From the IMG/VR virus record IMGVR_UViG_3300048919_000084, positions 1-51,807 of that record: DNA of 51,807 nucleotides, one strand, 5' to 3'. The notes under the pieces are model-generated. The model was given only the letters and a program-made list of their open reading frames with translations, was not told the origin of the DNA and searched no databases. Origin of the DNA: a virus. Below are positions 15,197 through 51,807 of this stretch, piece by piece (positions within the stretch are counted from its first letter, which is position 1; the number at the start of each line of letters is the position of its first letter). Position numbers and translations under genes: made by a program.

Positions 15197-15952
15197 ATGA
15201 CACCAAATTTGAGCACTAAGTTTGTTAACTGCCTGCAGGATTTATACCCAGGCGAAATTATTACGCTCATCGAGATTGACGGGACAAAGTTCGGCGCTCA
15301 GGTTTACCGCTTCCATGGCGAGAACATCAGCTATTCGCCAGAGGAACTCATTGCTGCTCAGCAGACCGGAACTCTCGCCCCGAAGAACATCGTCTTTAAT
15401 GGTCATGAGTTCGGGCCACGCCCATTCGGTATTCAGGGTGTTCAGATGGCGGGAGATGGAAAGCCGGGCAAGCCGCAACTTACCGTTTCAAATATGGACG
15501 CCAAAGTAGCTGCACTGGTTCGCAGTTATAACGGCATGGCTCAGGCCAAGGTTACAATTTGGATTTTGGTTAAGTCCCTTTTGAACGAAGATGGCACTGT
15601 TGCAGAAGGTGATTATCGTCGCCTGGTTTATTTCATTGAGCGCCCAAACATGGCTGATAACTTGAGGGTTACGTTTGACTTGACCTCTCCTTACGACATG
15701 GATGGGTTAATGATTCCGGCGAGACTGACTCAGAGCGTTTGCTATTGGGCGCAGCGCGGCTGGTATAAGTCAGGTAAGGGGTGCTCATATAACGGTCAGA
15801 ATGGTTATTTTGACAAAGACAATAATCCTGTTGGCGATCCAAGCGCTGACGTTTGCCCCGGCGTTGTTTCCGCCTGCAAGATCCGGTTTGGTGAAGAGCC
15901 GATGGATTTTGGCGGTTGCGCGGCGGCATCTCTTGTGAGGAATAGATCATGA
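15197..15952 (+). CDS. minor tail protein (lambda L-like)
   Basis: 251 aa. Position in the M-L-K-I-J series. C-terminal Cys cluster. Confidence 0.8.
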   Translation: MTPNLSTKFVNCLQDLYPGEIITLIEIDGTKFGAQVYRFHGENISYSPEELIAAQQTGTLAPKNIVFNGHEFGPRPFGIQGVQMAGDGKPGKPQLTVSNMDAKVAALVRSYNGMAQAKVTIWILVKSLLNEDGTVAEGDYRRLVYFIERPNMADNLRVTFDLTSPYDMDGLMIPARLTQSVCYWAQRGWYKSGKGCSYNGQNGYFDKDNNPVGDPSADVCPGVVSACKIRFGEEPMDFGGCAAASLVRNRS

Positions 15953-21957: not shown

Positions 21958-22182
21958 TTACCAGCTTTTTGTTTTGGTGCTGACTGTTCCGGAAATTTCA
22001 TTTCCAGATTTAACAAGGCCAGTGTATCGCATGTCAACATCACCCGATGGAACTGACTCACCATCCATATAGGTCAGTACGCAGGTGCCGCCTACAGCAG
22101 TGATACAATCCCCGTTTTTGTGGTTAGATGCGCAACCGGTCAGGGCTGATACGATCACAAACAGAGAGATTAACTTTTTCAT
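21958..22182 (-). CDS. small lipoprotein, candidate receptor-blocking superinfection-exclusion factor (Cor/Llp-like)
   Basis: Signal peptide plus lipobox MKKLISLFVIVSALTGC. 74 aa. Opposite strand, next to the receptor-binding genes. Confidence 0.6.
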   Translation of the reverse strand: MKKLISLFVIVSALTGCASNHKNGDCITAVGGTCVLTYMDGESVPSGDVDMRYTGLVKSGNEISGTVSTKTKSW

Positions 22183-22223
22183 GGGATTTCCTATTTTTGA
22201 GATTAAATTGTTTTGCTTCGATG

Positions 22224-22232
22224 TGGTAGACT
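22224..22232 (+). promoter_or_regulatory. extended -10-like TGgTAGACT ahead of the tail fibre gene
   Basis: Overlaps the minus-strand TATAGT of E16 face to face. Confidence 0.25.
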
Positions 22233-22272
22233 ATACATCAACCAAAATTTGGGTTTTAACAAAAAGTGCTAA
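22230..22272 (-). promoter_or_regulatory. marbox-type promoter cassette E16 (drives the lipoprotein gene)
   Basis: Minus strand reads TTAGCACTTTTTGTTAAAAC, 17 bp, TATAGT. 12/14 marbox positions. ATG 48 nt downstream. Confidence 0.55.
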
Positions 22273-22282
22273 GGGGTAAAAG

Positions 22283-24193
22283 ATGGCAATTTACAGAGAT
22301 GGTACGGCTTCGCTTTCAGCCAATGGCAAGGCAACCGGGACCGGTACACAGTGGACTAAACCGCTCTCGCTTATCCGTGTTGGGGCAACTGTAATATTCC
22401 TGAGCGGTTCTAAGCCAGTATTGGGAACTATCTCAGAGATCCTGAGTGATACCGAGATGAATCTCACGTCAACAAACGGTGAACAGGCTGCTGATGGTGA
22501 GTATGCAATTCTTGTTCATGATAGCTTAACTGTTGAGGGGCTTGCTCAGGATGTTACCGAAACGCTAAGGTATTACCAAAGCAGCGAGACGGCAGTTTCA
22601 GATGGGCTTGAAAGCGTAGGGCAATTCGTTACTGAAGCAAAAAATAGTGCCACTGCAGCAAAGCAGAGTGAAAAAAACTCAAAGACTAGCGAGACAAACG
22701 CAAAGTCAAGCGAAAATTATGCATACAACTCATCGCAAGAAGCAAAAACTAGCGAGACAAACGCAAAGTCAAGCGAAAATTATGCATACAACTCATCGCA
22801 AGAAGCAAAAACTAGCGAGGTGAATGCTGCAGCCAGTGCAAGGACTGCTCAAGAGGGAGCCGCTACAGTCGCAAACAAGGCAAATAAAGGAGTTAACTCA
22901 GACATAACAAAACTTAAAGGCCTTGTATCCGATGGATCCACATGGCTGGAAGAGGCCGATCTAAACGCCGGTGAGGGTGAAAGAGGAGTTAATCTTACAT
23001 CCACAAACAGCGTTGGTGTCAGTTTTGGCACCGAAAGCCAGAACGGTGGTGCATCTGTATTCCATAACTTCACTAAAGGAGTAGGTGGGGCTAATACTAA
23101 AGATAAAGCTATCATAGGGGGGTATGGTTCGCGTCCATGGGACGGTATTAACTACACAGCGCATTCCAACGCGGCGATACACTTTGTGCAGGATGGCGAT
23201 ACCACCACCACCAACCACGGAGGCTGGTTACGCCTTTTGGTTACGCCTAAAGGTAAAACCGTTAATAACCGGTATTCTCCATTTATTTTAAGCAACAATG
23301 GCGACACGATTATAGGTAAAGATGTGCCTCTTCACGGCTTTAACGGCGCAGCTTTTCAGGCTAATTTTTCTGATTTTGAAGGTAGAGGCCTGAAGCAGGT
23401 AGTTAATAATGTAAATGAATTACAGCTGTTGACCGGCATAACCCAGGGATCTAGCTGCTCCGGCAACATCAGGTTCAACGCATGCGGTGGATCTCCTCTC
23501 AACCCGGGACCGTTGCAGGCAAACTCCAGCATGTACTTCTCAATGGCGGGTTTCGATGGATCGGCATGGGTTTCTGCTGGTGCTATTATGCAGATGTCAG
23601 CGCCAACATCGTGGAGCACAACTAACCGAGGCTGTGAGATAACGTTTGGCACAACAGCCAATGGAACCATAACGCGATATAACCGATGGGTTATTCAAAA
23701 TGATGGACATTTGGCCCCTTCATTTGATAATAACGTTTCTGTCGGTTGGGCACAGAAAAGGGTTACTGCTGTTTATGCGGTTAATGGAACTGTTCAGACC
23801 TCTGATGGAAGGCTAAAAACTGAGGTTCGTGAATTCTCAGATGCTGAGGTTGCAGCTGCTTGTGCTCTTTCAAAAGAGATCGGGTTTTGGAAGTGGCGGG
23901 AAAAAGTAGCTATCGAGGGAGATCAGGCGAGATCGCATGTTGGTATGACGGTTCAGAGAGCTATTGAAGTGATGGAGTCTTTTGGTCTTGACCCGATGAG
24001 CTACGGATTTATTTGCTATGACTCATGGGACGAATCGACAGAGGTTAACGAATTTGACTCTGATGGAAATGGAATTGAAAACAAATTGCCCGCCGGAGAC
24101 CGTTACAGCTTCAGGTATGAGCAGTTGAACTTATTTATTGCTCGTGGATTTGAGAAGAGACTGAGTGATATTGAGGAAATGCTGAAAAAATAA
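22283..24193 (+). CDS. side tail fibre with C-terminal S74-type intramolecular chaperone domain
   Basis: SDGRLKTEV Ser-Lys motif near residue 507. Repeated SETNAKSSENYAYNSSQEAKT. 636 aa. Confidence 0.8.
   Translation: MAIYRDGTASLSANGKATGTGTQWTKPLSLIRVGATVIFLSGSKPVLGTISEILSDTEMNLTSTNGEQAADGEYAILVHDSLTVEGLAQDVTETLRYYQSSETAVSDGLESVGQFVTEAKNSATAAKQSEKNSKTSETNAKSSENYAYNSSQEAKTSETNAKSSENYAYNSSQEAKTSEVNAAASARTAQEGAATVANKANKGVNSDITKLKGLVSDGSTWLEEADLNAGEGERGVNLTSTNSVGVSFGTESQNGGASVFHNFTKGVGGANTKDKAIIGGYGSRPWDGINYTAHSNAAIHFVQDGDTTTTNHGGWLRLLVTPKGKTVNNRYSPFILSNNGDTIIGKDVPLHGFNGAAFQANFSDFEGRGLKQVVNNVNELQLLTGITQGSSCSGNIRFNACGGSPLNPGPLQANSSMYFSMAGFDGSAWVSAGAIMQMSAPTSWSTTNRGCEITFGTTANGTITRYNRWVIQNDGHLAPSFDNNVSVGWAQKRVTAVYAVNGTVQTSDGRLKTEVREFSDAEVAAACALSKEIGFWKWREKVAIEGDQARSHVGMTVQRAIEVMESFGLDPMSYGFICYDSWDESTEVNEFDSDGNGIENKLPAGDRYSFRYEQLNLFIARGFEKRLSDIEEMLKK
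22685..22810 (+). repeat. perfect 63-bp tandem duplication (2 copies plus 9 bp of a third) inside the tail fibre gene
   Basis: 22685-22747 equals 22748-22810 exactly (actagcgagacaaacgc...gaagcaaaa). Confidence 0.9.
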
Positions 24194-24715: not shown

Positions 24716-25387
24716 TTATTCGAAACTTTCAATGGATTGCGGATTGGATTGTACAGGCTCAGCAGTGGGTGATGCAACCTGAGCGGAAACGTTTTGTTTG
24801 TCACCCTTCTTGGCTGGCTGGAATCCGCCCTTTGCTTGCGGTACTGACATTGATGCTTTGCGCTGCTCGTAGTGACTCTGGACGACAGGGCGACTCGCGG
24901 CGTCGCTACCGGCCCAAGCCTTTTTAAATTCTTCCTGCAGATCCTCAAGGGTCTCGCATTTGTCGAGAGATTTTTTCCAGTCACTTGCCTTTTTGATTGA
25001 GCGTTCAGCATCATCATCAGCCTGGCTAAGACCAAAGCACGCCGCAAGGGCATATCGACGGGCGTAAGTGAAAGCAGATCCAGTGCCCTGAGCATCTTTC
25101 TTTGAAACGGGCATTACTGTGAAGTAGCTGATCCATTGGCCTGATGAGTGGCGAACAGTGGTTATCACTTTAAGCATGTCAATAGTTGAATCTTCCGTCA
25201 TTGACTGCTCAATCCAAAGCTCATTAGCAGTTAGCGGCGGCTCAATCGTATCAAGGACGCTATCAAGGGTTGCATAGCTGGCTTTAGTGTGACCGTTAAC
25301 CTTATCCTTAAGTACTTTCACGAAACCCACGCGAGCCTTAAAAAGTGCCGGGAAAAGTAATTCGGTCTTTTCTGATGTTTGTTGCAT
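24716..25387 (-). CDS. erf: ERF-family single-strand annealing protein
   Basis: ASYATLDSVLDTIEPPL and GSAFTYARRYALAACFGLSQADDDAE match the conserved blocks of P22 Erf. Confidence 0.8.
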   Translation of the reverse strand: MQQTSEKTELLFPALFKARVGFVKVLKDKVNGHTKASYATLDSVLDTIEPPLTANELWIEQSMTEDSTIDMLKVITTVRHSSGQWISYFTVMPVSKKDAQGTGSAFTYARRYALAACFGLSQADDDAERSIKKASDWKKSLDKCETLEDLQEEFKKAWAGSDAASRPVVQSHYEQRKASMSVPQAKGGFQPAKKGDKQNVSAQVASPTAEPVQSNPQSIESFE

Positions 25388-25447: not shown

Positions 25448-26476
25448 TTAGTGCTGTTGAAAAATGTCTTTATGCTGGAACTTAACAAAGTCAGGGGTTG
25501 GCAGCTTAACAGATGGCGCGTTGTTTTCGTATCCTGGCCACACATCAGCCGCCTGGCATGCGTTGAACTGGTGGATTACGCTCACGTACTGCTTGCGGCC
25601 CAACTGAATTTGCTCATCATCAAAAATGAATCCCATCGGCAAGAAAGGCTCTTTTTTCTCTTGAGCGAGCAGCTGAACGATGATGGGGCAAGTTTCTTTG
25701 AATGCTGCTTTAAACAGGTCTCGCTGCAGCGCCATTTTCAAGTAGTAACCAAAGTTATAAGCGTGGCGTCCGAATTCGGATGGCTTTACGCTCTGAGTGG
25801 TCTTGTAATCGGTTATAACTACAACTTCATCATAATGCACGCCATCAATAACGACGTCATACAGCTTGTCTACGTGGTCAATACGGACCTTAACTTTTAC
25901 GCCAAAAATTACGCCAAAAATTGAGATTTCACGTTGAGCAGTTTGGCTGTTGATGATGGCTGCGTGCTCAGGGATATTTAGCAGAGTTGCACGCATAGCG
26001 ATGCACTTATCGTAATCTTCACCTTTTACAAGCTCAACGCCATCACGGCGAGCCTCTGATTCCTGAATCTGTTCAATTAGCCACATAACATTAAGGTCGA
26101 TTTCATTTTTAACCATCATTTCAATCAGATCTGGATACTGCTTGCCTGACGTACCAATCAGGCCACAGGCTTTCAGCTTCGATGCCAGTGCGGTTTGTGA
26201 CGTTATTGCATCCTTGATCTCATCGGCAACGGCAGCGCGGCGATAGGTTGAGTTGAATCGCTCAATCTCAAGCATGATCGTGTGCGACTGAGTACCAAAC
26301 TCCAGAGCCTTTCCTGGTTCTCGAACTGCAAATCGCCATGCAGCCGGGCAGGTTGAGTAGATATCTGAAAGGCTCGATCCTGAAACGTACTCAGCACACC
26401 ATGAGTCTTTGCTGTGATACTCATCGTTTGAAAGCTGGTCATTGGTAAAGATTTTGAACTCTGAATTAGTGTTCAT
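25448..26476 (-). CDS. PD-(D/E)XK (RecB/Cas4-like) exonuclease
   Basis: IDHVD...VVITDYKTT nuclease motif. Start taken at the ATG 8 nt after GGAG (26476), not the track start. Confidence 0.7.
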   Translation of the reverse strand: MNTNSEFKIFTNDQLSNDEYHSKDSWCAEYVSGSSLSDIYSTCPAAWRFAVREPGKALEFGTQSHTIMLEIERFNSTYRRAAVADEIKDAITSQTALASKLKACGLIGTSGKQYPDLIEMMVKNEIDLNVMWLIEQIQESEARRDGVELVKGEDYDKCIAMRATLLNIPEHAAIINSQTAQREISIFGVIFGVKVKVRIDHVDKLYDVVIDGVHYDEVVVITDYKTTQSVKPSEFGRHAYNFGYYLKMALQRDLFKAAFKETCPIIVQLLAQEKKEPFLPMGFIFDDEQIQLGRKQYVSVIHQFNACQAADVWPGYENNAPSVKLPTPDFVKFQHKDIFQQH

Positions 26477-26505
26477 TGCTATTACTCCGTGTTGTCTGTG
26501 CGGTG

Positions 26506-26549
26506 ATACTACTTTCCAGCCAGGTCCATTGCAAGTCAAAAAGTGCTAT
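26506..26549 (-). promoter_or_regulatory. marbox-type promoter cassette E13 (recombination operon)
   Basis: ATAGCACTTTTTGACTTGCA, 18 bp, TAGTAT. The RE1 half is intact and the RE2 half is replaced by TTGACT (10/14). ATG 30 nt downstream. Confidence 0.5.
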
Positions 26550-26553
26550 TTGA

Positions 26554-27042
26554 TTTGTCCCAACGTATCCGGGACAAATTTACTGCCTTGAAATTTTGTC
26601 CAAGGACAAATTCTGAAGAAAAAACCTTTATAAATCAAAGTAACAAACCATCAAAAACACCTTGTCCCAAAAAGTGCCCCGGATTTTCCTGCACCCCTAT
26701 ATATTTTTGTTTTTACCGAGCGCCAAGCAGGAGAGCAGACACTGCACATTAGTAAAATTTAAAGGGGTGTATATATATTTCCGGTGCAGAAAACGGGACA
26801 AATGGGACAACTATAGATAAATATAATAATAATAATCTTGATTATCATATACTTAAGAGCAATATATTTGTCCCATATTTGTCCCATTTCGAACTAAAAA
26901 GTGCGGCATTGAAATCCGGGGCACTTTTTGGGACAAACTTTTGGCGCTCTCTAAAATATGATTTGTAAGGAGTTTTTTTTGATATTTGTCCAAGGACAAA
27001 ATTTCACGCCTTGCCGCAAAAAATGGGACAAAAACGGGACAT
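26554..27042. repeat. non-coding island A: quasi-palindromic array of GGGACAA/TTGTCCC boxes around an A+T-rich core; inverted copy of island B
   Basis: Boxes at 26555, 26571, 26662, 26795, 26804, 26868, 26878, 26930, 27025 and 27036. TTTGTCC-AA-GGACAAA at 26595-26610 and 26985-27000. AT core about 26811-26867. Confidence 0.85.
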
Positions 27043-27056
27043 TAATTCCTGACGGC

Positions 27057-27081
27057 AATAAAAAACCCGCCGAAGCGGGTG
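27057..27081 (-). terminator. intrinsic terminator after the primase gene
   Basis: Minus strand acccgc-ttcg-gcgggt hairpin followed by T-run. Confidence 0.75.
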
Positions 27082-27099
27082 TGTTTGATAACTGATTGA

Positions 27100-28035
27100 T
27101 CAGATAAGTTCCGAGGCATTGAAGAGTTGACGCCTCATTCCTGACCGGTATCCTCCATCATTGGGGATTAGGACTTTTAGCGCCCTGTCATCCGCCATGT
27201 AAAGTGTCTCCTTGTCTGATGGCATGCACGCAACCCTCATCTCCCGATCACCTTTGTAACGACTGGCAACCATCTCAAGATTCTCAGGAGTAAAGCAAGT
27301 CCATACCTCCTGGCCTGTAGTCAGGTTAACGTGCTGTGAGTCGATCCAGTCAACAACGAGATATATCGCTTTTTCAGTTTTACCAGTCACGGCAACCGAC
27401 CCGTAAGTCACCTTCTTTCCATAGAATGACTGAGATCCAGTATCAGCATTAATCATGAGAACATTAACCACCTCATCATCGTCAGGCCCATCCGATGTTA
27501 CCAGGTGGCATGGAATTACGTGGGTTAGGCTCTCAGAGCCATCAGGCAGAGACTTCACCCCAACCCGATACGACTCACCCCCCAACCCCTCAAAAATCGT
27601 CAGAGGCGTTACAGCTAGCTCTATTGTTCGCTGCATTAATGCCGAGCACTTCTCTGGTTCGACTGATGCGCTAAAGCTGTACCCTGGATCTCGTGATGCG
27701 ATGCGGTTCTTTTTGATAACGTACTCTTGAGGCTGCTTACCCAGGAATCGACCAATGATATTCACACACTCGCTGTAAGGCTCTCCGGTCAGCTTCATCA
27801 GCCAGCCAATGCCGTCAGTGTTCCCGCATGCGTTACAGACCGCTCCGCCGTCGCCCTTTTCGTTAACCTTGTCGGTCCATCTGAATCGGTCATTTCCTCC
27901 GCAATGAGGGCATGGCTGGTGCTTCTTGTTGAAAACTTCTGGCTTAAGCCCGCAAACTGATTTAAGGATTTCCTCCCACATGCCCCTTGTGTAGGGCATC
28001 ACATCCTCTTTCTGGTAATAAAGCGGCTGGTTCAT
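27100..28035 (-). CDS. DNA primase (zinc-ribbon + TOPRIM-type)
   Basis: CPHCGGNDRFRW...CNACGN zinc-binding motif as in P4-alpha-type primases. 311 aa. Confidence 0.8.
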   Translation of the reverse strand: MNQPLYYQKEDVMPYTRGMWEEILKSVCGLKPEVFNKKHQPCPHCGGNDRFRWTDKVNEKGDGGAVCNACGNTDGIGWLMKLTGEPYSECVNIIGRFLGKQPQEYVIKKNRIASRDPGYSFSASVEPEKCSALMQRTIELAVTPLTIFEGLGGESYRVGVKSLPDGSESLTHVIPCHLVTSDGPDDDEVVNVLMINADTGSQSFYGKKVTYGSVAVTGKTEKAIYLVVDWIDSQHVNLTTGQEVWTCFTPENLEMVASRYKGDREMRVACMPSDKETLYMADDRALKVLIPNDGGYRSGMRRQLFNASELI

Positions 28036-28083: not shown

Positions 28084-28113
28084 TAATCGCGAGCGTTAAC
28101 CAGAAAATGCTAT
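28069..28113 (-). promoter_or_regulatory. degenerate marbox-type cassette E17, with the -10-like TACTAT in the terminator loop
   Basis: ATAGCATTTTCTGGTTAACG, 19 bp, TACTAT. 11/14 marbox positions. Confidence 0.3.
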
Positions 28114-28523
28114 TTCTTGATAAATTCTTTGCGCAGGTTTCTACCGCCAACGCACTTGCCATTTGTGTCAAACTTCAAGTCTGGACGACAGAATGATGCG
28201 GTAAATCCCACTCGACCATTCTTTTTATAATCACGATGGATGCGACGCGCACCTTCTGGTGAGATTCGCCCGCGAGCAAGCCACCAACGGACAGCTCCAT
28301 GCGTCATTCCAAGGCGTCGCACCAGGTTATTAGTGTTGCCATAATATTCAATGACCATCTCCATTCGCTTTCTCAGACCGGCTTTAGCTTCATCCGTCAG
28401 GTCATTAAGAACGGCAGCTTTCTTGCGGGGCTTCTTGTCAGGGCCGCGCCGGGTTCCGTTGTTGCCGTTCTTTGTTCTCTTATCGACTTCACCCGTTGAA
28501 ACTGCTATTTTTTCGTTTTCCAT
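28110..28523 (-). CDS. basic HTH DNA-binding protein (137 aa)
   Basis: Lys/Arg-rich N-terminus. HTH-like LVRRLGMTHGAVRWWLARGRIS. Confidence 0.55.
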   Translation of the reverse strand: MENEKIAVSTGEVDKRTKNGNNGTRRGPDKKPRKKAAVLNDLTDEAKAGLRKRMEMVIEYYGNTNNLVRRLGMTHGAVRWWLARGRISPEGARRIHRDYKKNGRVGFTASFCRPDLKFDTNGKCVGGRNLRKEFIKK

Positions 28524-28614: not shown

Positions 28615-30630
28615 ATGACAAAGAGCATCAGAAAGCAGATCGCAGAGCTGACAGCAGAGCAGATGCAGGCCGTAAAAGACCGCTTCCGTGTGGGCAACAT
28701 CACTCCTTATGACTATCAGGTTGTGATGTACCTTGAGACAGCAAAGCGGATCAAGAATTATGAGCATCCATTTTACTTAAAGGCTTCGGTTTCTGCAGGA
28801 AAGACGCTGTTCTTTGCCATGGTTGCGGCTCAGTGCCAGCGCATGAATATTCCAATGTTAATCCTCGCTCGCCAGGCTGAAATCGTGGAGCAGGATTCAA
28901 TTGAGCTGACAAATCTGGCAGTAAAGAACTCAGTATATTGCGCCGGTTTAAACACTAAATCAGCTTATTTCCCTATCGTTGTTGGATCAGAGGGTACGGT
29001 AATCGGCGGAATCGATAAGGCGCTGGGTGACTATTATCCGATGGTAATCGGGATAGATGAATGCCATCAGCTCGACTGTGAGGATTTGGCTGATGCGATT
29101 GAGCACAAAGAATCACGCGATCAGATGGAGCGTGAGAAAACTCAGCCTTACATGGTAAATGGCGTGGTGGTTGATAAAGACTATGTGCCAAGCGGATTTG
29201 ATACGGTAGCGTGGGGAACAAAGCGAAGCCAGTACACGATTATCATCATGGAGTTTATGAGCCGTTGCCGTGAGCGGTATGGGAGAGAGCTTCGGATATT
29301 TGGCGCGACTGGATCAGAGTTTCGCGGCGTCGTTCCAATCTTAGTGGAAGATAAGAGCCGACCTGGATTCTGGCGCGAGCAGGTAACGGATATCAACACT
29401 GATTACCTGGTCGAATTCGGCTCAGTAGTTCCGACAAACTTTGGCGACGTTGAAGGACTTGGTTATGACTTAAGTGATTTCCATGTGTCCGGTCAGGATG
29501 GCGTGCAGGACTTCACGCAGAAGCAATTAAACGCCATGCAGAAGATCATCAACGATGATGCAAAGATGACTGAAAAAATCATGCATAAAGTCGTGGCGAT
29601 CTGCAAGAACAGGAATAGCGTGCTGATAACATGTGCCGGTAAGCGACATTGTGAGGAAGCCGCGAGCTACTTACCACCAGGATCAACCTATTGCATTATT
29701 ACTGGCACCACTGGAGAGAAGCAGAGAAAGGCCTACCTTGACGCTATCTTTAAAGGAGAAATTAAATACTGCTTTCAGGTTAACGCATTGACAACAGGAG
29801 TCAACCAACCCCTATGGGATACGAGTGTAATCCTGAGAAAGATCGCAAGCCTTACGCTTCTGATTCAGCTTTTAGGCCGTGGCATGCGACAGCTTAAGCA
29901 GTGTCATATTGATTGGGGTTTCAGTAAAGAAGATCACCTTGTTCTGGATTTTGCCGGGTGCATGGATGAAATGGGGCAACTCTACTTCAACCCAATACTC
30001 GAACAGCAGCAATTTCAAAATAAATTCAGAAACGGCAAAGATCCTAAAAAATGCGAGATTTGCGGAACTATGAACAGCTATTACGCTCGCCGCTGCATGC
30101 ATGTTGATTCGGCGGGTTCCCGCTGTGAGCATTTCTGGACATTCCAGACATGTGAGGATCAGCGAGATGAGCGAACAAATAAAATGATCGTGAAAGGTTG
30201 TGGTGCCAAAAACGATGTTGTAGCCAGGATTTGCCGTTGCTGTGATGTGTCTCTGAAAGACCCAAACGAAGCTCTGAGCAATAAGCACTACACTAAATCA
30301 GACTGGTTTGGCGTACTTGGGATGAGCATTTCACCAACTAAAAACCAGCGCGGAGTGGTGGTTACTTATCAGCTCGAAAAGGATGGTGATGTATTCAGTG
30401 CGACGGAGAGATTTTTCCCTGAGTCTGAAAGCAACATTTGCCGCATCAAGTGGCGAGAGTTCTGCAAAGACCACATTGAAGATCCTGCTCAGGCTAAGCT
30501 GGTTGGCTCATACAAAAATGGCATCAAGTGCGTTAGTATGGCTCATCTTTTCCGGACGCCATCGCGCACAACCCACCGCCGCACTGAGAAGAGTGGCGAC
30601 ATTTTAGCTAAGAAGGAGTTCAGGTTGTGA
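28615..30630 (+). CDS. SF2 (DExH) DNA helicase with C-terminal zinc ribbons
   Basis: Walker A SAGKT and DExH box GIDECHQL. CEICG...C.H and CGAKN...CRCC clusters. Confidence 0.85.
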   Translation: MTKSIRKQIAELTAEQMQAVKDRFRVGNITPYDYQVVMYLETAKRIKNYEHPFYLKASVSAGKTLFFAMVAAQCQRMNIPMLILARQAEIVEQDSIELTNLAVKNSVYCAGLNTKSAYFPIVVGSEGTVIGGIDKALGDYYPMVIGIDECHQLDCEDLADAIEHKESRDQMEREKTQPYMVNGVVVDKDYVPSGFDTVAWGTKRSQYTIIIMEFMSRCRERYGRELRIFGATGSEFRGVVPILVEDKSRPGFWREQVTDINTDYLVEFGSVVPTNFGDVEGLGYDLSDFHVSGQDGVQDFTQKQLNAMQKIINDDAKMTEKIMHKVVAICKNRNSVLITCAGKRHCEEAASYLPPGSTYCIITGTTGEKQRKAYLDAIFKGEIKYCFQVNALTTGVNQPLWDTSVILRKIASLTLLIQLLGRGMRQLKQCHIDWGFSKEDHLVLDFAGCMDEMGQLYFNPILEQQQFQNKFRNGKDPKKCEICGTMNSYYARRCMHVDSAGSRCEHFWTFQTCEDQRDERTNKMIVKGCGAKNDVVARICRCCDVSLKDPNEALSNKHYTKSDWFGVLGMSISPTKNQRGVVVTYQLEKDGDVFSATERFFPESESNICRIKWREFCKDHIEDPAQAKLVGSYKNGIKCVSMAHLFRTPSRTTHRRTEKSGDILAKKEFRL

Positions 30631-37322: not shown

Positions 37323-38903
37323 TTACCGCCCTAAGAATGCCGGGTTAATAAAAACGTCCTGATTGATGACGCACACATAATTCATCTCTTCCAGCTTGGC
37401 AAGAAGATGATCGCGAACCTTGGTTGTCACGCCAGCCTGGCCAGAGAAAGGCTTAACTTTTCGAGCCATCTCAATCAGAGTGCGCATCTTAATTACACCT
37501 TTTGAGGTTGGGCCGCGCTTAATGATGACGTCAATCAGAGCGCGAATCTCAGCATCCTCACCAGCGTGACCGGCAGCATTCGCCGCTGACAGGTATGTTT
37601 TGCTCAGCTCGTAAAACATCATGATTGCTTCCTGCATTGTCTCAAACTCAATCGTCTTTGACTTCTGAGCGCTTGAGTTAGGTGAATGCCAGTTGCGGAT
37701 CACATGAAGAACTGACGCAATCCTGATTGCCTGCTTATCGAATTTACCCATCGCACCACGAAGCATTGAGTGTGAGTATCGACCGCCATCCGATAAATCT
37801 TTTTCCATCTCCTGACGAGCTTTGTTGAGTAACCGCTCAGCAGCCGAACTAACTTTCAGGTTGACCTCAGTCTCTGTCATGATCTCGTGAATGAGCTTGT
37901 AATACTCTGCAACCAGAGACTTATCCACGCTCTCAAAAGTTGAGTTACCATTCTCATCAATGAACTGTCGCCGACCAAGGAAAGACTCCTCTCGAACCAA
38001 CAGGAATCGCTCTGAAACACCAATACCTCGCGAGCCGGCAGACATGATGGAATCAATGGTTTCGTCCTGAGCAATGACCGCAATGGCACCCATGGCAACA
38101 AAGCTCATGTTGTTATCAGCGTTGGCACGAGCGATAGAAACGTGACCGCTATCCCATGCTTTAAGCACGAGTTCACTGTTTGTTTTGCGAGAGCTATCCT
38201 GGTAAGTCAGACCAAGCAAGCTGTTGATACTGGTTGCCTCATCCGAGATAACGGAGAAGTTTCCTTGCCGATAGTTGATGCGTGCCAGACCTTCTGGCGT
38301 GGTATCGGAAACCGGAAAAATAACGTCACCCAGCTTTTCGAGCTTCTCCTGTAAATCCTCCTGCTCAGCATAAAGATCGGCAAGCTCAGTCTTTGACTTC
38401 TCCCCCTTCATTTCGTTTTTAAGTGCTGACAGCTTGGCGAGCACTGTCTTTCTCTCCTTCTTCCTGAGTTCATTGATACGCTCTGACTCAGCAACCATCG
38501 GCGCAATTGCCAGGCTGTTGATCGCAGACTTACCTGTTGACGGCGGCTGGCTTGTCACAACGTAAAGTGCTGTTGGCTGCTTTGTCCCGTGATAGTCAAC
38601 GGTAAAGCGCCCAAGCATTGCTGAGCTGACACAGGCCAGGAAGTGAATATAGGCTGATGACTCTGGGAACTGGATAGAGCGAGAAGCATTGCCAGCCAGC
38701 TTGCCAACAATGTCAACGTCATTGCCAAGTGAGATTGCCGGGTACTTTTCCGCACCGGTTTCAACGTCAGCAGCATCACCCCAAAAGTTAGCGGCGTAAG
38801 CATATCCACCTTCTGAGATCGCAACGCGCAGAGGGCTAAGGCCAGACTGGTTTGCAATTTCGATAATTTGTTGTGGGCTGATTCGCGCCTGAAATAAATT
38901 CAC
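37323..38903 (-). CDS. large P-loop-containing protein of unknown function (526 aa)
   Basis: Walker-A-like SQPPSTGKSA. GTG start 7 nt after GGAG. Confidence 0.6.
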   Translation of the reverse strand: MNLFQARISPQQIIEIANQSGLSPLRVAISEGGYAYAANFWGDAADVETGAEKYPAISLGNDVDIVGKLAGNASRSIQFPESSAYIHFLACVSSAMLGRFTVDYHGTKQPTALYVVTSQPPSTGKSAINSLAIAPMVAESERINELRKKERKTVLAKLSALKNEMKGEKSKTELADLYAEQEDLQEKLEKLGDVIFPVSDTTPEGLARINYRQGNFSVISDEATSINSLLGLTYQDSSRKTNSELVLKAWDSGHVSIARANADNNMSFVAMGAIAVIAQDETIDSIMSAGSRGIGVSERFLLVREESFLGRRQFIDENGNSTFESVDKSLVAEYYKLIHEIMTETEVNLKVSSAAERLLNKARQEMEKDLSDGGRYSHSMLRGAMGKFDKQAIRIASVLHVIRNWHSPNSSAQKSKTIEFETMQEAIMMFYELSKTYLSAANAAGHAGEDAEIRALIDVIIKRGPTSKGVIKMRTLIEMARKVKPFSGQAGVTTKVRDHLLAKLEEMNYVCVINQDVFINPAFLGR

Positions 38904-40158: not shown

Positions 40159-40167
40159 TATTGATCC

Positions 40168-40419
40168 TTAAAATGGAATGCAGTGGTCACAGTAATCATC
40201 TGGATCTGAACAGGAGCACATAAATTCTGTGTTTCCACATTCATCACAGAACTCATCGCATGGCAGGCTCTCATCGTCCATATCCATAGAACCGAGCGCA
40301 TCAGTCAGGCTGCAGTCACCACGACCAACCTTGTGACACCACTCCTCGTTGAGTCCGGCAAACATGGCCGCATTAAATCGCGCACGATATAAATCAGATG
40401 TTGGGGCATTACGCATCAT
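40168..40419 (-). CDS. Cys-rich acidic protein ending in ...CIPF (83 aa)
   Basis: CDEFCDECGNTEFMCSCSDPDDYCDHCIPF. Confidence 0.55.
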   Translation of the reverse strand: MMRNAPTSDLYRARFNAAMFAGLNEEWCHKVGRGDCSLTDALGSMDMDDESLPCDEFCDECGNTEFMCSCSDPDDYCDHCIPF

Positions 40420-41469: not shown

Positions 41470-41514
41470 AGTATGCCCCATTGCATTGCTGAGTGGTTAG
41501 GCAAAAAGTGCTAT
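41470..41514 (-). promoter_or_regulatory. marbox-type promoter cassette E12
   Basis: ATAGCACTTTTTGCCTAACC, 19 bp, CATACT. 13/14 marbox positions. The TAG of the box is the stop of the peptidase gene. Confidence 0.6.
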
Positions 41515-41888
41515 CGCTTAATCCACAATGCCTGGCCGGGAAATGGCATCTCATAGCAATCCAGTGATTCCCGCCTGCCATACCACGGACACCAGATTGA
41601 TTCATCCGGATACATCACGATCCAGTGTGAATGGCTGGAGCCTCTTTCCTGCCGGACTCGAACGATTCGCTTACTGCCAATCGTCTTACTGAATGGAACG
41701 CGCTCCATATCCAGGCAGAAGAAGTCACCAACAGCAATCAGATCTTTATAGCTGGATGCGTTCGGGCCTCGGTCAAGCGCACCACGCCAGCCAATCTCAA
41801 TCTCAAAGTAACTGACACCAAGCAGAGTAGCCAGAGCAGCAACCCCGCAATCATCTTTCTTACGCTGATGAATGAATGTCTCGATCAT
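41511..41888 (-). CDS. papain-fold cysteine peptidase, C39-like
   Basis: KKDDCGVAALATLLG (catalytic Cys context) and SHSHWIVMYPDE (His). ATG 8 nt after GGAGG. Confidence 0.55.
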   Translation of the reverse strand: MIETFIHQRKKDDCGVAALATLLGVSYFEIEIGWRGALDRGPNASSYKDLIAVGDFFCLDMERVPFSKTIGSKRIVRVRQERGSSHSHWIVMYPDESIWCPWYGRRESLDCYEMPFPGQALWIKR

Positions 41889-41917
41889 ATCCAAATCCTC
41901 CAGTTGGGTGAGACTGA

Positions 41918-41961
41918 AGCATAACGCCATTCATTCCTGATCGGTAGGCAAAAAGTGCTAT
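41918..41961 (-). promoter_or_regulatory. marbox-type promoter cassette E11
   Basis: ATAGCACTTTTTGCCTACCG, 18 bp, TATGCT. 12/14 marbox positions. ATG 30 nt downstream. Confidence 0.55.
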
Positions 41962-42250
41962 TTCATGAGTGCAGTTACATAGCACGCAATTGAATAGCGC
42001 GTTAGTTAATAGTGAGCGATTGAATAGTGTATGTGTTGTCACCTGACAACTCTTATTGCTTTCAAATCCTTATACTCCCGATCCAGATGTGTATCGTATT
42101 GCGGTACAGCTGTATCACATCGTGGGTTTAGTTATGTATCGGTCATTACATTATTGAGTTTGTGTATGGGTTGATGTGATGAATACACCCACCACGCCGG
42201 ACAATTTTTCCATAATTCCCAGCCAAAAGTATCATGCCAGGCTGGTGAGT

Positions 42251-42719
42251 TTGTCCCATTTGTCCCATTTTCCTGCAATTTTGAGAGTGGGACAAATCGT
42301 GAAAATTTATCCTTATAAAGTAGTAACTTGCGAGCTTGTCCCAACTTGTCCCAAAAAGTGCGGAAAAAAATCCGGGGCACTTTTTAGTGCGAAATGGGAC
42401 ACGATTGGGACAAATATATCTCCCTTAAGTATATGATAATAAAGATTATTATTATTATATGTATATATACTCGTCCCATTTGTCCCATTATCTGCCCCGG
42501 AAATATGAGGGGTGGCATATTGTGGGGAGAAATCTGAATGATAATTCCGGGTTGTTCCGCGCACAAAATATATAAGGGGGGTGGAAAAATCCGGGGCACT
42601 TTTTGGGACAAGGCATTTTTGGGGGTGTCGGCATCTGATTTATAAGGAGTTTTTTGCTCAAATTTGTCCTTGGACAAAAATGTTGACCCAAAAGTTTGTC
42701 CCGGATACAATGGGACAAA
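42251..42719. repeat. non-coding island B: inverted copy of island A (GGGACAA/TTGTCCC array around an A+T-rich core)
   Basis: Boxes at 42251, 42260, 42289, 42336, 42346, 42386, 42397, 42472, 42480, 42605, 42696 and 42712. TTTGTCC-TT-GGACAAA at 42663-42678. The reverse complement of A aligns along its whole length. Confidence 0.85.
42683..42711 (+). promoter_or_regulatory. strong sigma70 promoter TTGACC-17-TACAAT (rightward early promoter)
   Basis: TTGACC at 42683-42688 and TACAAT at 42706-42711. The -10 lies between TTTGTCCC (42695-42702) and GGGACAAA (42712-42719). Confidence 0.7.
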
Positions 42720-42757
42720 TAAATCACAGACCATTGGCACAATAGAGGAAAAAATCC

Positions 42758-43207
42758 ATGCGTGAGAGTAAGTTAGCGTTCAGACACTTCCTGCAGCAGG
42801 CAGCAATGAAGCTCGCGGCGGGTGAAGTCGAAAAGATTGAGTTCAATGCACAGCAGATTAGCATTCGATATGAGGGCCTGGAAAACCCTCCTCAGCACTA
42901 TTTTCGCAATGCCATTAACTCGTACAAGCCGTTTAAGGATGCAGGCCATCTCTGCAAGGTCACAAAGCGCGGCGAGGATTACATGATTACCCTGGTCGAA
43001 GGTGGTCAGGCTTCAATCCGGCCCCGCAATGGATACAGCTCGAACGATATGAGTGACGTGATCGTGAAGGTGGTTCAGGCAGTGATGAGCGCGAAGGTTG
43101 ACGCATCACATCTGACCGGTAAGCAGGCGGAAGCATTCCAGGCTGGTGCTGATGCATATCGTGAGGCGCTGGCTGCAACTCTGGGGGAGATGACCAGTCA
43201 TGGCTAA
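42758..43207 (+). CDS. hypothetical protein (149 aa), first gene of the rightward operon
   Basis: RBS GAGGA. ORF track. Confidence 0.6.
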   Translation: MRESKLAFRHFLQQAAMKLAAGEVEKIEFNAQQISIRYEGLENPPQHYFRNAINSYKPFKDAGHLCKVTKRGEDYMITLVEGGQASIRPRNGYSSNDMSDVIVKVVQAVMSAKVDASHLTGKQAEAFQAGADAYREALAATLGEMTSHG

Positions 43208-51607: not shown

Positions 51608-51807
51608 ATGCAAAAGGTAAAAATCAAGATCTTAAATGCCCACACAGCTAACGACTGCCAGACAGACACTTTAGCTGATTGTGGCTTCGCTGCTGGCGAC
51701 ATTGTGTTGGCAGAATTGTTTTCTGATGGTGACGCGGTTGTTGAAAATTCGGACTTTGACCGCGCACTTTGGGAGGGTTTTATCTACCTTGACGCTGGAG
51801 AATTTGA
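51608..51807 (+). CDS. hypothetical protein, 5' part of the junction-spanning 71-aa ORF (continues at 1-143)
   Basis: ATG 7 nt after GGAG and 31 nt after the E15 -10 box. Confidence 0.5.
   Translation, partial: MQKVKIKILNAHTANDCQTDTLADCGFAAGDIVLAELFSDGDAVVENSDFDRALWEGFIYLDAGEF
51681..51807. repeat. 127-bp terminal direct repeat, copy 2
   Basis: Exact copy of 1-127. It lies inside an ORF that continues across the junction. Confidence 0.9.

Follow-up and report, generated by a model that had tools for sequence, protein, structure and literature searches.

The Bacillus phage SPP1, a virulent pac-type siphovirus, carries the same short repeats by an A+T-rich stretch in two distant regions, oriL and oriR, and both sets are bound by one phage protein, the origin-binding protein G38P. 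Theta replication of SPP1 depends on oriL (PMC5737612). Iteron plasmids (pPS10, pSC101, F, and R6K) place iterons beside an A+T-rich unwinding element and have an inverted-repeat operator over the promoter of an adjacent gene for a winged-helix protein. Such interleaving of a promoter with an iteron palindrome is the autoregulation logic of the plasmid Rep proteins. Phage P4 has two iteron clusters kilobases apart, ori and crr, of which crr is a direct-repeat pair without an origin core; the iterons are bound by the C-terminal winged-helix domain of the P4 alpha protein, not by its zinc motif. In herpes simplex virus (HSV), oriS and oriL have an A+T-rich center with inverted flanking binding sites and lie between divergently transcribed genes, and the genome has oriS twice, the copies inverted relative to each other. 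The HSV replication proteins are described elsewhere (PMC8539067). The operators OL and OR of phage lambda are two multisite clusters for one regulator at divergent early promoters kilobases apart, with a specificity that varies by lineage, and the pac sites of P1 and SPP1 have short repeats on both sides of a central region.

For Drexlerviridae, no origin-binding protein is known, and recent genome papers say outright that neither iterons nor an origin could be located (PMC11447400, PMC7718038, and PMC8004638). The window analyzed here (the whole stretch of 51,807 nucleotides, a circular assembly with a 127-bp overlap) comes from a T1-like siphovirus of this family, virulent and pac-type like SPP1, whose nearest relative is Pantoea phage AAS23. 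With its own primase, DUF3987 helicase, and SSB, the phage is expected to have an origin. We find two noncoding islands, A and B, that share features with each of the systems above, and we tentatively regard them as origin-like early-control modules of about 0.5 kb, at which a protein-DNA complex could assemble throughout the T1-like phages.

A single module is present twice, as islands A and B

The two islands repeat a single module that would bind protein. A sequence-only reading of this DNA had described B as an inverted copy of A, at an identity of roughly three-quarters judged by eye. Global alignment of the reverse complement of A (27042-26540) with B (42251-42719) agrees: 366 of 450 ungapped columns are identical (81%), or 70% of all 522 columns when gaps are included, so the estimate by eye was fair. 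The alignment scores 271, against 2.5 ± 2.0 (maximum of 8) for 100 shuffles, and island A in forward orientation gave no alignment with B. All five shared strings quoted in that reading were located, among them the 17-mer CTTAAGTATATGATAAT (42424-42440 in B; 26841-26857, minus strand, in A). An independent repeat search recovered the inverted A/B pairs I1 (130 nt, 88%), I2 (105 nt, 77%), I5 (32 nt, 88%), I11, and I15, and found each island to be internally an imperfect palindrome as well (I3, I4, and I20). An exact-match scan of IMG/VR with the 17-mer gave seven matches, all unrelated and chance-like; a 25-mer scan of metagenome contigs gave none, and an Rfam search of the whole window returned zero family matches.

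The two clusters lie 15.2 kb apart. Homology to the annotated AAS23 genome, by which we assigned the genes between them, confirms the claimed content of the bracketed segment: replication, nuclease, methylase, and lysis genes and a leftward operon. The bracketing itself is incidental, because the islands of T1-type genomes are direct repeats and none of ~85 related loci has them flanking an inverted segment. The genes most relevant here, with the first gene right of island B, are as follows:

27100-28035, minus strand: primase (311 aa; homology to AAS23)
28110-28523, minus strand: conserved HTH regulator (PHROG 2856), second candidate iteron binder
28615-30630, plus strand: SF2 helicase (homology to AAS23)
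37323-38903, minus strand: DUF3987 helicase (homology to AAS23)
42758-43207, plus strand: DUF7174-family gene, first of the rightward early operon and prime candidate binder

The segment also encodes a VRR-NUC nuclease, a Dam methylase, a DNA-repair exonuclease, a polynucleotide kinase (PNK), lysis proteins, and a cytosine methylase, together with the leftward operon of small genes. GATC occurs 211 times in the genome, near expectation, and stretches of about 1 kb without it are common.

Island B occupies part of a noncoding gap of about 41931-42757 and has the following features:

42250-42719: homologous module of island B
42250-42352: distal arm, with iteron pairs (42250-42266 and 42335-42352), GGGACAAAT (42289), and a TTTATAAGGA box (42310-42319, minus strand)
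42346-42385: palindrome AAAAAGTGC...GCACTTTTT
42396-42413, plus strand: tandem iteron pair GGGACACGATTGGGACAA, distal core flank
42414-42471: A+T-rich core (85% A+T), with the 17-mer (42424-42440) and (ATT)n
42472-42486, minus strand: tandem iteron pair CGTCCCATTTGTCCC, proximal core flank, inverted relative to 42396-42413
42497-42579: CCGGAAATAT box, then a B-specific segment including TGTTCCGCGC (42553-42562), then ATATATAAGGGG
42587-42613, plus strand: AAATCCGGGGCACTTTTTGGGACAAGG box, inside the longest exact A/B match (28 bp, AAAATCCGGGGCACTTTTTGGGACAAGG)
42636-42678: TGATTTATAAGGAG box and tight palindrome TTTGTCCTTGGACAAA
42683-42719, plus strand: rightward sigma-70 promoter TTGACC-17-TACAAT (10 of 12 positions match the consensus), into which an iteron palindrome is interleaved

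Island A lies ahead of the exo-erf-ssb operon and has the following features:

26477-27099: whole noncoding gap, from the exo start codon (26476, minus strand) to the primase stop
About 26540-27042: homologous module of island A, inverted relative to B
26534-26554, minus strand: 21-mer-type box ATCAAATAGCACTTTTTGACT, directly upstream of exo, with no counterpart at the equivalent position of B
26554-26578: gene-proximal palindromic iteron pair TTTGTCCC-N9-GGGACAAA, sigma-70 hexamers degenerate
26595-26610: tight palindrome TTTGTCCAAGGACAAA, proximal arm
26662-26686, minus strand: GGGGCACTTTTTGGGACAA box, proximal arm, half 21-mer fused to an iteron
26705-26774: A-specific segment, in the place of the B-specific segment
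26795-26810, plus strand: tandem iteron pair GGGACAAATGGGACAA, exo-proximal core flank, center of the internal palindrome of A
26811-26866: A+T-rich core (85% A+T over 60 bp), with (ATT)n and the 17-mer, conserved across genera
26867-26885, minus strand: tandem iteron pair TTTGTCCCATATTTGTCCC, distal core flank, inverted relative to 26795-26810
26896-26936: palindrome AAAAAGTGC...GCACTTTTT and an iteron, distal arm
26959-27041: distal end, with a TGATTTGTAAGGAG box, a tight palindrome (26985-27000), and an iteron pair (27025-27041)
27060-27086: intrinsic terminator (bidirectional), primase 3' end

Small "hypothetical protein" open reading frames (ORFs), such as gp28, gp29, and gp60 of AAS23, have been annotated within the islands. 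These are probably not genes.

Inverted iteron arrays flank an A+T-rich core

Each island carries 13 to 14 copies of the 7- to 8-bp iteron TTTGTCCC/GGGACAAA, arranged as inverted arrays on either side of the core, so that TGTCC(C)/GGACA sites number 13 to 14 per island over ~470 bp. Across the 51.8 kb scanned, 10 of 12 copies of TTGTCCC and 9 of 11 copies of GGGACAA fall inside the two islands, which are the top two clusters of any short repeat genome-wide. Each core spans ~55 bp at 85% A+T, and each island has several further conserved boxes. Of all 60-bp windows genome-wide, the two cores also have the highest A+T content (51/60), and the core TAAGTATATGATAA...ATTATTATTAT is conserved across genera. 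Both islands combine two of the features of iteron origins, a cluster of repeated short sites and an adjacent A+T-rich stretch of the kind that serves as a DNA-unwinding element.

The arrangement differs in detail from its closest parallels. Whereas oriL of SPP1 lies inside the initiator gene and has direct repeats, the islands are intergenic, palindromic around the core, and located in promoter regions, with a putative binder and a presumed origin activity. Unlike the iteron plasmids, the islands have iterons inverted on both sides of the core and no DnaA boxes: neither island contains the DnaA consensus TTATNCACA (allowing up to one mismatch) or the integration host factor (IHF) consensus WATCARNNNNTTR. 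We rejected GC skew as an indicator of the origin, as it tracks only the direction of transcription.

Promoter overlap and motifs without a promoter

Island B qualifies as a genuine divergent control region. Its promoter, TTGACC(42683)-17-TACAAT(42706), overlaps the iteron pair TTTGTCCC-N9-GGGACAAA (42695-42719), so that binding sites cover the −35 and −10 elements, and promoter and palindrome are both conserved in loci L006, L007, and L008. In island A, the proximal palindrome is retained even though its sigma-70 hexamers have decayed. The distal end of A faces the primase terminator and thus has no gene to drive; despite this, the distal arm retains all of its motifs. That motifs are kept without a working promoter on one side or a gene on the other indicates that the iteron arrays do more than control these promoters. 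The earlier proposal of duplicated divergent control regions consequently holds only in part. It fits the divergent layout of B, with its strong conserved sigma-70 promoter in a palindrome, and the position of A ahead of exo-erf-ssb, but not the distal arm of A or a shared module that is centered on the A+T core.

The same observations bear on a purely transcriptional role, under which the islands would be duplicated operator/promoter modules, like OL/OR of lambda or the p4 switch region of phi29, through which one regulator represses or switches the early rightward, leftward, and exo-erf-ssb operons with no role in replication. Both islands lie at operon 5' ends, in B the strong conserved promoter and a palindromic iteron pair are interleaved, and lineage-specific operator/regulator pairs are typical among phage regulators. 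Furthermore, island A is also a divergent control region in T1-type genomes (between cor and exo), and the islands carry half-copies of a family-wide 21-mer promoter-associated box. We nevertheless consider this role rather unlikely, because 13 to 14 sites over ~470 bp, together with a conserved A+T core ~250 bp upstream of the genes, far exceed the needs of an operator. No convincing conserved sigma-70 promoter was found within the core, the distal arm of A is conserved though it has no gene to control, and the part common to A and B in Webervirus-like genomes is the core with its flanking iterons, whereas the promoter-proximal parts are not shared. Compared with lambda OL/OR, there are far more sites and a conserved A+T core here, and the phage is virulent, without a repressor or lysogeny module.

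Paired islands are conserved across the T1 family

Relatives carrying only one island had been named as evidence that would count against the sequence-only reading. We instead found paired islands in T1, in AAS23, and in about 14 genomes of Webervirus-like phages (15 when AAS23 is counted); they are family-wide. Beyond the window, ~15 loci have an inverted pair of 42 to 133 nt, 73 to 88% identical, at the A and B positions, and the islands of T1 align significantly in direct orientation (score of 66, against 23 ± 2.6 when shuffled). The layout of convergent iteron arrays around an A+T core recurs in AAS23, Webervirus-like phages, T1, and other lineages, with a different iteron in each. The flanking repeat may be GGGACAA, GCGGTAGA, GTAAGAT, or GTGTAACA, and it is identical in both islands of one genome; the sites of AAS23, GCGGTAGAT, are completely unlike the repeats of the window. 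A repeat that is specific to a lineage yet common to both islands of a genome implies one fast-evolving phage protein that binds both. Note that iterons in many lineages are too short or degenerate for automatic calling of iteron/protein covariation family-wide.

Across lineages, paralogous cores within one genome are 72% alike, versus 47 to 67% for orthologous cores between genomes. Among close relatives, orthologous islands are 92 to 98% identical and paralogous islands only 60 to 73%. There is thus no frequent exchange between A and B, and on these values, we rejected concerted evolution by frequent gene conversion on short time scales.

The islands had also been suggested as substrates for inversion of the 15.2-kb segment, whether homologous or site-specific, which would produce two genome isomers. 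They do bound the segment as inverted repeats (~470 bp at 81% identity, the longest exact match being 28 bp), the phage has its own exo/Erf recombination system, and the family has undergone a past inversion of the fibre-ssb-erf-exo block, one endpoint of which is at the outer border of island A. However, the relative orientation of the primase, SF2 helicase, DUF3987 helicase, and DUF7174 genes is invariant in ~85 related loci (counted wherever those genes fall inside the fetched stretch), and no inverted isomer of the segment was found among them. No resolvase, invertase, or integrase domain was detected in the scanned ORFs or the AAS23 annotation. Together with the direct repeats of T1-type genomes and the closer match of orthologous than paralogous islands, this makes segment inversion barely credible. 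Because none of these loci inverts the inter-island segment and T1-type islands are direct repeats, the inverted placement of the pair is incidental and reflects how the exo block is oriented. The phage pair also departs from that of HSV: host domain and proteins are unrelated, the SF2 helicase here is RadD-like rather than UL9-like, and within the phage family the islands do not keep one relative orientation.

Island B and packaging

The B-specific segment with TGTTCCGCGC is conserved among B orthologues. Covariation indicative of RNA structure was looked for in this segment and none was found; its conservation is therefore at the DNA level, and the segment (42497-42579) could serve a function peculiar to B, pac for example. 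This raises the possibility that the islands are packaging signals, with repeats acting as small-terminase (TerS) sites that flank a conserved cleavage region, like P1 pac or SPP1 pacL/pacC/pacR, where B would act as pac and A as an additional or vestigial one. The T1 record begins at the start of a 2.8-kb terminal redundancy, inside the gap equivalent to island B. A passage of the SU57 paper places the genome end and pac of T1 and T1-like phages in this untranslated region, with the end of SU57 in the equivalent gap (PMC7718038), so some features of B may serve packaging, and the ATATA repeats of the region were once proposed as pac, according to a passage of PMC8421802. The divergence of TerS (53% identical to its AAS23 counterpart, versus 87% for TerL) and the conserved B-specific segment point the same way.

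We nonetheless judge a packaging role for the pair improbable. T1 packaging is described in the classical literature as a single unidirectional series from one pac, whereas there are two full copies of the module per genome, inverted or direct according to lineage. Moreover, island B is ~11 kb and island A ~25 kb from terS, and an iteron palindrome overlaps a promoter; in all three respects, the islands differ from the pac sites of P1 and SPP1.

Candidate iteron-binding proteins

The best candidate binder is the winged-helix–like DUF7174 protein, whose gene directly follows island B on the right. Its family occurs throughout Drexlerviridae, and it is the first gene beside island B in the window, AAS23, and T1 (28 loci in total), with its sigma-70 promoter inside the palindromic iteron pair. 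The protein shares only 33 to 34% identity with the one in AAS23, against 65 to 90% for most proteins. Its N-terminal 80 aa have a predicted H-b-H-H-b-b winged-helix topology (pLDDT of ~88 to 90), an assignment made by topology alone. A Foldseek search of the Protein Data Bank (PDB) gave nothing significant (best E = 0.18), with winged-helix proteins among the nonsignificant matches, and searching PDB sequences with either DUF7174 or the DUF3987 helicase was uninformative. Unlike the two-domain Rep proteins of iteron plasmids, DUF7174 is much smaller, and it shows neither detectable sequence similarity nor a significant fold match to them. The gene directly to the right of island B in Webervirus-like genomes could not be recognized as a DUF7174 member, and hhalign of the DUF7174 profile with this gene from one such genome found no homology. 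The second candidate is the HTH regulator (28110-28523), whose HTH segment is its most diverged part (32% identity to AAS23); in this segment, the alternative binder is as diverged as DUF7174.

We rejected three other proteins. The C-terminal domain of the SF2 helicase, considered as a UL9-like origin binder, matches Escherichia coli RadD (E = 2 × 10−7), and this is therefore a repair-type helicase. Identity between the DUF3987 helicases of this phage and AAS23 is a uniform 81%, C terminus included. The primase is 72% identical to its AAS23 counterpart over the whole protein and 80 to 96% over its zinc ribbon, while the iterons of the two phages are unrelated.

These results bear on the first explanation offered for the pair, namely two cis sites bound by one protein on the model of P4. 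Its general form is supported, given that the same rare repeat is in both islands and is lineage-specific yet common to both; the link to P4 through the primase does not. The primase does have a zinc motif of the P4-alpha type, a PF08273 zinc ribbon as in P4 alpha and T7 gp4, the annotation of its T1 orthologue notes a similarity to alpha proteins of P4-like elements, and there are two iteron clusters kilobases apart. Even so, it is very improbable that the islands are an ori/crr pair, bound by the phage primase and looped to fire replication. Within the 311-aa primase, Pfam detects only the zinc ribbon, with neither a helicase nor a C-terminal winged-helix origin-binding domain, and both this ribbon and the DUF3987 helicase are too well conserved between phages with completely different repeats. 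Here, primase, helicase, and putative DNA binder are separate proteins, the primase is not the specificity determinant, and both islands are full copies with A+T cores, unlike ori and crr.

Proposed origin-like control modules in T1-like phages

The islands have a common repeat architecture that is conserved across the family, they change together from lineage to lineage, and their iterons overlap a promoter. From these features, we infer both the identity of the binder and an origin function. By analogy with the systems compared above, the island pair is a candidate iteron-type origin with a putative binder that is encoded adjacent and autoregulated. One phage-encoded protein of fast-evolving specificity, likeliest DUF7174, would bind the iterons of both islands. 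Iteron palindromes over the early DUF7174-operon promoter and upstream of exo-erf-ssb would then provide autoregulation and coordinated regulation, while the iteron-flanked A+T core would allow the duplex to be opened and the DUF3987 helicase and primase of the phage to be loaded there. The islands would thus be the so far unlocated replication origins of T1-like phages, and the module is the best candidate yet for the T1-family replication origin and early control region.

A more specific scenario, which we consider somewhat doubtful, is that T1-like phages have two palindromic origins recognized by a family of small winged-helix initiators (DUF7174) not characterized before, whose specificity has been repeatedly swapped along with both origins, in the manner of incompatibility or immunity groups. 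The same complexes would autoregulate the early and recombination operons, tying replication to recombination and to early transcription.

T1 belongs to the seven classical T phages, and its family, Drexlerviridae, is abundant and in wide use for therapy and in phage collections. The islands account for the breaking of T1-like phage assemblies at this locus, and they are a warning against trusting small "hypothetical protein" ORFs inside them. Our findings supply a conserved, testable pair of cis elements and two candidate binders for the origin and early regulation of T1-like phages, along with a natural specificity-swap series (GGGACAA, GCGGTAGA, GTAAGAT, and GTGTAACA) that is open to experimental use.

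Two repeat-rich islands form an inverted pair

From its sequence, the window phage is classed as a T1-like siphovirus (Drexlerviridae). In the phage collection, only Pantoea phage vB_PagS_AAS23 (hereafter AAS23) is closely related to it, with ~72% nucleotide identity and identical gene order; farther matches are hundreds of T1-like phages of Klebsiella, Escherichia, and Shigella. The 51.8-kb genome has an identical 127-bp sequence at 1-127 and 51681-51807. The most likely source is a k-mer overlap left by the assembler in a circular or permuted genome, and the window is thus uninformative on termini. The two islands occupy non-coding gaps:

25448-26476 (-): exo, first gene of the exo-erf-ssb operon
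26540-27042: island A, between the start of this operon and the bidirectional terminator (27060-27086) behind the primase gene
42251-42719: island B, between the leftward small-gene operon and a rightward operon
42758-43207 (+): DUF7174 gene, heading the rightward operon

Island B had been read from the sequence as an inverted copy of A, and alignment bears this out over the full length: the reverse complement of A matches B at 366 of 450 ungapped columns (81%), with a score of 271 versus 2.5 ± 2 for shuffled sequence. The longest exact stretch common to both is 28 bp. An independent repeat search of the window recovered inverted A/B pairs of 130 nt (88%), 105 nt (77%), and 32 nt (88%). All strings quoted in that sequence-only reading occur in the islands, and homology and domain searches, together with comparison to AAS23, found the inter-island gene content that it described. 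In the leftward operon, the first ORF of appreciable size (41511-41930, -) has no AAS23 counterpart and no Pfam or PHROG match; its 'DCGVAALATL' motif is reminiscent of C39-type cysteine peptidases.

The short repeat TGTCC(C)/GGACA is present in 13 to 14 copies per island. The islands hold 10 of the 12 genome copies of TTGTCCC, 9 of 11 of GGGACAA, and 7 of 15 GCACTTTTT half-boxes. Among clusters of any short repeat they rank first and second in the genome, and they contain its two most A+T-rich 60-bp windows (85% A+T). Their elements follow one order, common to both.

Order of elements in islands A and B, from the gene-proximal end through the core to the distal arm
1. Palindromic iteron pair TTTGTCCC-N9-GGGACAAA (gene-proximal end)
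2. Tight palindrome TTTGTCC-NN-GGACAAA
3. TGATTTATAAGGAG box
4. GGGGCACTTTTTGGGACAAGG box
5. Island-specific segment, 70-80 nt
6. CCGGAAATAT
7. Tandem iteron pair
8. A+T core
9. Inverted tandem iteron pair
10. Palindrome AAAAAGTGC...GCACTTTTT
11. Distal arm with the same boxes in mirror orientation

Island B carries a strong sigma-70 promoter, TTGACC-17-TACAAT at 42683-42711, whose elements interleave with those of the proximal palindrome. In A, this palindrome is intact, the matching promoter hexamers have decayed, and a copy of a family-wide 21-mer box follows just upstream of exo. The proximal palindrome sits across the spacer and start region of a strong, conserved promoter, and at least part of each island is a predicted operator.

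Islands in related phages

Both positions are occupied by islands in AAS23 as well; these are mutually inverted, have an A+T core, and use TTTTGCGGTAGAT as the short repeat. AAS23 gp28, gp29, and gp60 (24732-24833, 24991-25143, and 40167-40343) lie inside the island equivalents, have no homologues, and are probably not real genes. We surveyed 80 loci around the DNA-repair exonuclease gene by self-comparison. Inverted pairs of 42 to 133 nt (73 to 88% identical) were found exactly at the A and B positions in ~14 Webervirus-like genomes and AAS23. The Webervirus-like islands use GTAAGAT/ATCTTAC around a core (...TAAGTATATGATAAATAATAATATTATTATTATT...) nearly identical to that of the window; (ATT)3AT occurs in these genomes only in the islands, on the minus strand at A and the plus strand at B. 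Other lineages keep the layout of converging repeats around an A+T core with the motifs GTTACGC, GAAACA, ACAAC, or GTGAAC. In T1, GTGTAACA-type repeats and A+T cores are found upstream of both exo and ST77, and these two regions align significantly, in direct orientation (score of 66 versus 23 ± 2.6 shuffled).

Three closer relatives recovered from raw assemblies (loci L006 to L008; DUF7174 66 to 98% identical) retain the TTGTCCC-type repeat, the core, the boxes, and the promoter-plus-palindrome arrangement, and the loci of two distant DUF7174 members (L087 and L088) have a neighbouring island of like organisation. Four independent short-read Logan contigs (L007, L008, L087, and L088) end in or at the island B equivalent, which fits either a repeat-caused assembly break or a physical genome end. 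In a divergent relative (L003, ~15580-15790), the core is flanked by GTGAAC/GTTCAC repeats such as GTGTTCACC. These resemble the P4 type I iteron, TGTTCACC, which may be coincidence.

Among close Webervirus-like genomes, orthologous islands are 92 to 98% identical and paralogous ones 60 to 73%, so A/B exchange is infrequent. Across lineages this is reversed, with same-genome islands 72% alike versus 47 to 67% for orthologues, and both islands of a genome always carry the repeat of that lineage. This pattern suggests that both co-evolve with one phage-encoded specificity determinant; a host factor would not be expected to vary so between enterobacterial hosts.

Orientation of the pair

The sequence-only reading had the islands bracket a 15.2-kb segment, possibly as substrates for its inversion. 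The relative orientation of primase (-), SF2 helicase (+), DUF3987 helicase (-), and DUF7174 (+) is constant across the ~85 family loci compared, wherever these genes lie in the retrieved stretch, and the segment is therefore inverted in none of them. No recombinase was detected among the scanned window ORFs or in the AAS23 annotation. With both recombinase and isomers, the defining features of invertible segments, absent, we regard inversion substrates as extremely improbable.

The variable part is the block left of island A. The order fibre (+), ssb-erf-exo (-), island A, primase is found in the window, AAS23, and ~30 Webervirus-like loci; in at least 25 T1-type loci the whole block, island A included, is inverted, placing the island between cor and exo in direct orientation to B. 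Its left breakpoint is at 21958-22282: here the tail-fibre start codon directly adjoins a Cor-like lipoprotein gene (21958-22182, -), which has a 21-mer box of its own (22255-22277). Bracketing and inverted orientation are thus incidental, and each island travels with its own downstream operon. The tail-fibre gene itself contains a near-perfect 63-bp tandem repeat (22680-22819; 2.2 copies, 98% identical) that encodes a repeated 21-aa unit.

A pac site would hardly be expected as two copies whose relative orientation varies, and we consider it improbable that the islands are packaging signals. Several observations nevertheless point that way. The T1 record and its terminal redundancy begin inside the gap equivalent to island B, where the SU57 paper puts the genome end and pac of T1-like phages (PMC7718038); ATATA repeats were formerly proposed as pac, as a passage in PMC8421802 cites; and TerS is 53% identical to that of AAS23, versus 87% for TerL. 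The B-specific segment 42507-42567 (with TGTTCCGCGC at 42553-42562) is a better candidate for pac than is the shared module. This segment is unrelated to that of A, yet its DNA sequence is conserved among B orthologues from distant lineages (L006, L007, L008, L057, L087, and L088), and it is a candidate for a B-specific function such as the pac that the literature places in the T1 gap. No RNA covariation was detected in it among B orthologues.

The 21-mer box

The family-wide 21-mer, aaATAGCACnnnTTGnTAAAA, contains the dyad TAGCA-N5-TGCTA and is listed as an unsolved question in the TLS paper (PMC11447400). Its copies in the window are:

31045, 35156, 43614, 43986, 44202, 45051, 45594, 47687, 50069, 50759 (+): 21-mer copies
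22270 (-): copy at the Cor-like lipoprotein gene
26534-26554, 41499-41519, 41946-41966 (-): weaker copies

At a distance of 22 nt downstream there is a hexamer (CATTAT/CATAAT/TATTAT), and the interval often contains a G+C hairpin. With this hexamer as a -10 element, the dyad centre would fall at about -41.5, as in class II activator sites, so that the 21-mers are probably activator-dependent middle or late promoters. One candidate for the activator is a conserved HTH regulator (28110-28523).

Candidate iteron-binding proteins

All window ORFs were compared with AAS23, a phage with unrelated repeats, and the identity of most orthologues falls between 65 and 90%. The primase, proposed earlier as the binder in a parallel with P4 ori/crr, is too conserved to be the specificity protein (72%; zinc ribbon 80 to 96%). 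As the binder is not the primase-helicase, the point that defines P4 ori/crr, a P4-type mechanism is very improbable. The DUF3987 helicase is likewise too conserved (81% throughout, C-terminus included). The SF2 helicase (28615-30630) has a C-terminal extension (residues ~440-671) with two zinc-ribbon-like Cys clusters; it is diverged, and its tail matches E. coli RadD structures (Foldseek 7r7j, E = 2e-7), indicating a repair-type enzyme. The 'DNA helicase' of T1-like phages is RadD-like. Its last ~125 aa are the part most diverged from AAS23 and possibly co-evolve with the phage SSB.

The DUF7174 protein stands out, with only 33 to 34% identity to its AAS23 counterpart and very few homologues detectable by exhaustive HMMER search. 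It holds the first position right of B in the window, AAS23, T1 (ST77), and 28 loci in total, and fold comparison finds it across Drexlerviridae. Its N-terminal 80 residues have a predicted H-b-H-H-b-b, or winged-helix, topology (pLDDT ~88-90); the top Foldseek matches in the PDB are winged-helix proteins, none significant. DUF7174 membership was not detected, profile alignment included, for the first gene after B in Webervirus-like genomes. The second candidate is the HTH regulator, whose HTH segment is its most diverged part (32% versus AAS23).

Predicted function

That the islands are purely transcriptional control regions would suit their operator-like palindromes, but we judge it somewhat unlikely, since promoter control alone would not account for several features: the number of sites; the sequence-conserved A+T core, ~250 bp upstream of the genes and enclosed by inverted repeat pairs; the proximal palindrome of A, kept after its promoter decayed; the whole distal arm of A, kept despite facing a terminator; and the part shared by Webervirus-like A and B, which is the core with its flanking repeats. 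These features, the replication genes of the phage (primase, DUF3987 helicase, and SSB), and the standing of the islands as the only origin candidates in the genome by the usual criteria (repeat clusters and A+T windows) lead us to favour, tentatively, origin-like early-control modules. Weighing against an origin, no DnaA or IHF sites were found in either island, and GC skew gave no compositional origin signal in the genome.

The islands may function in the manner of iteron origins joined with operator clusters. Iteron plasmids similarly combine iterons and an unwinding element with an inverted-repeat operator that overlaps the promoter of the neighbouring gene for the binder, and duplicated modules would have parallels in SPP1 oriL/oriR and HSV oriS. 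According to the TLS, SU57, and AAS23 papers, neither the origin nor the origin-binding protein is known in this family (PMC11447400, PMC7718038, and PMC8004638), and iterons were explicitly reported absent from the whole TLS genome (PMC11447400). Our search of the searchable literature found no description of paired islands in T1-like phages. The long-standing question of where replication of these phages originates and which protein initiates it becomes directly testable, and the islands expose a natural series of specificity swaps.
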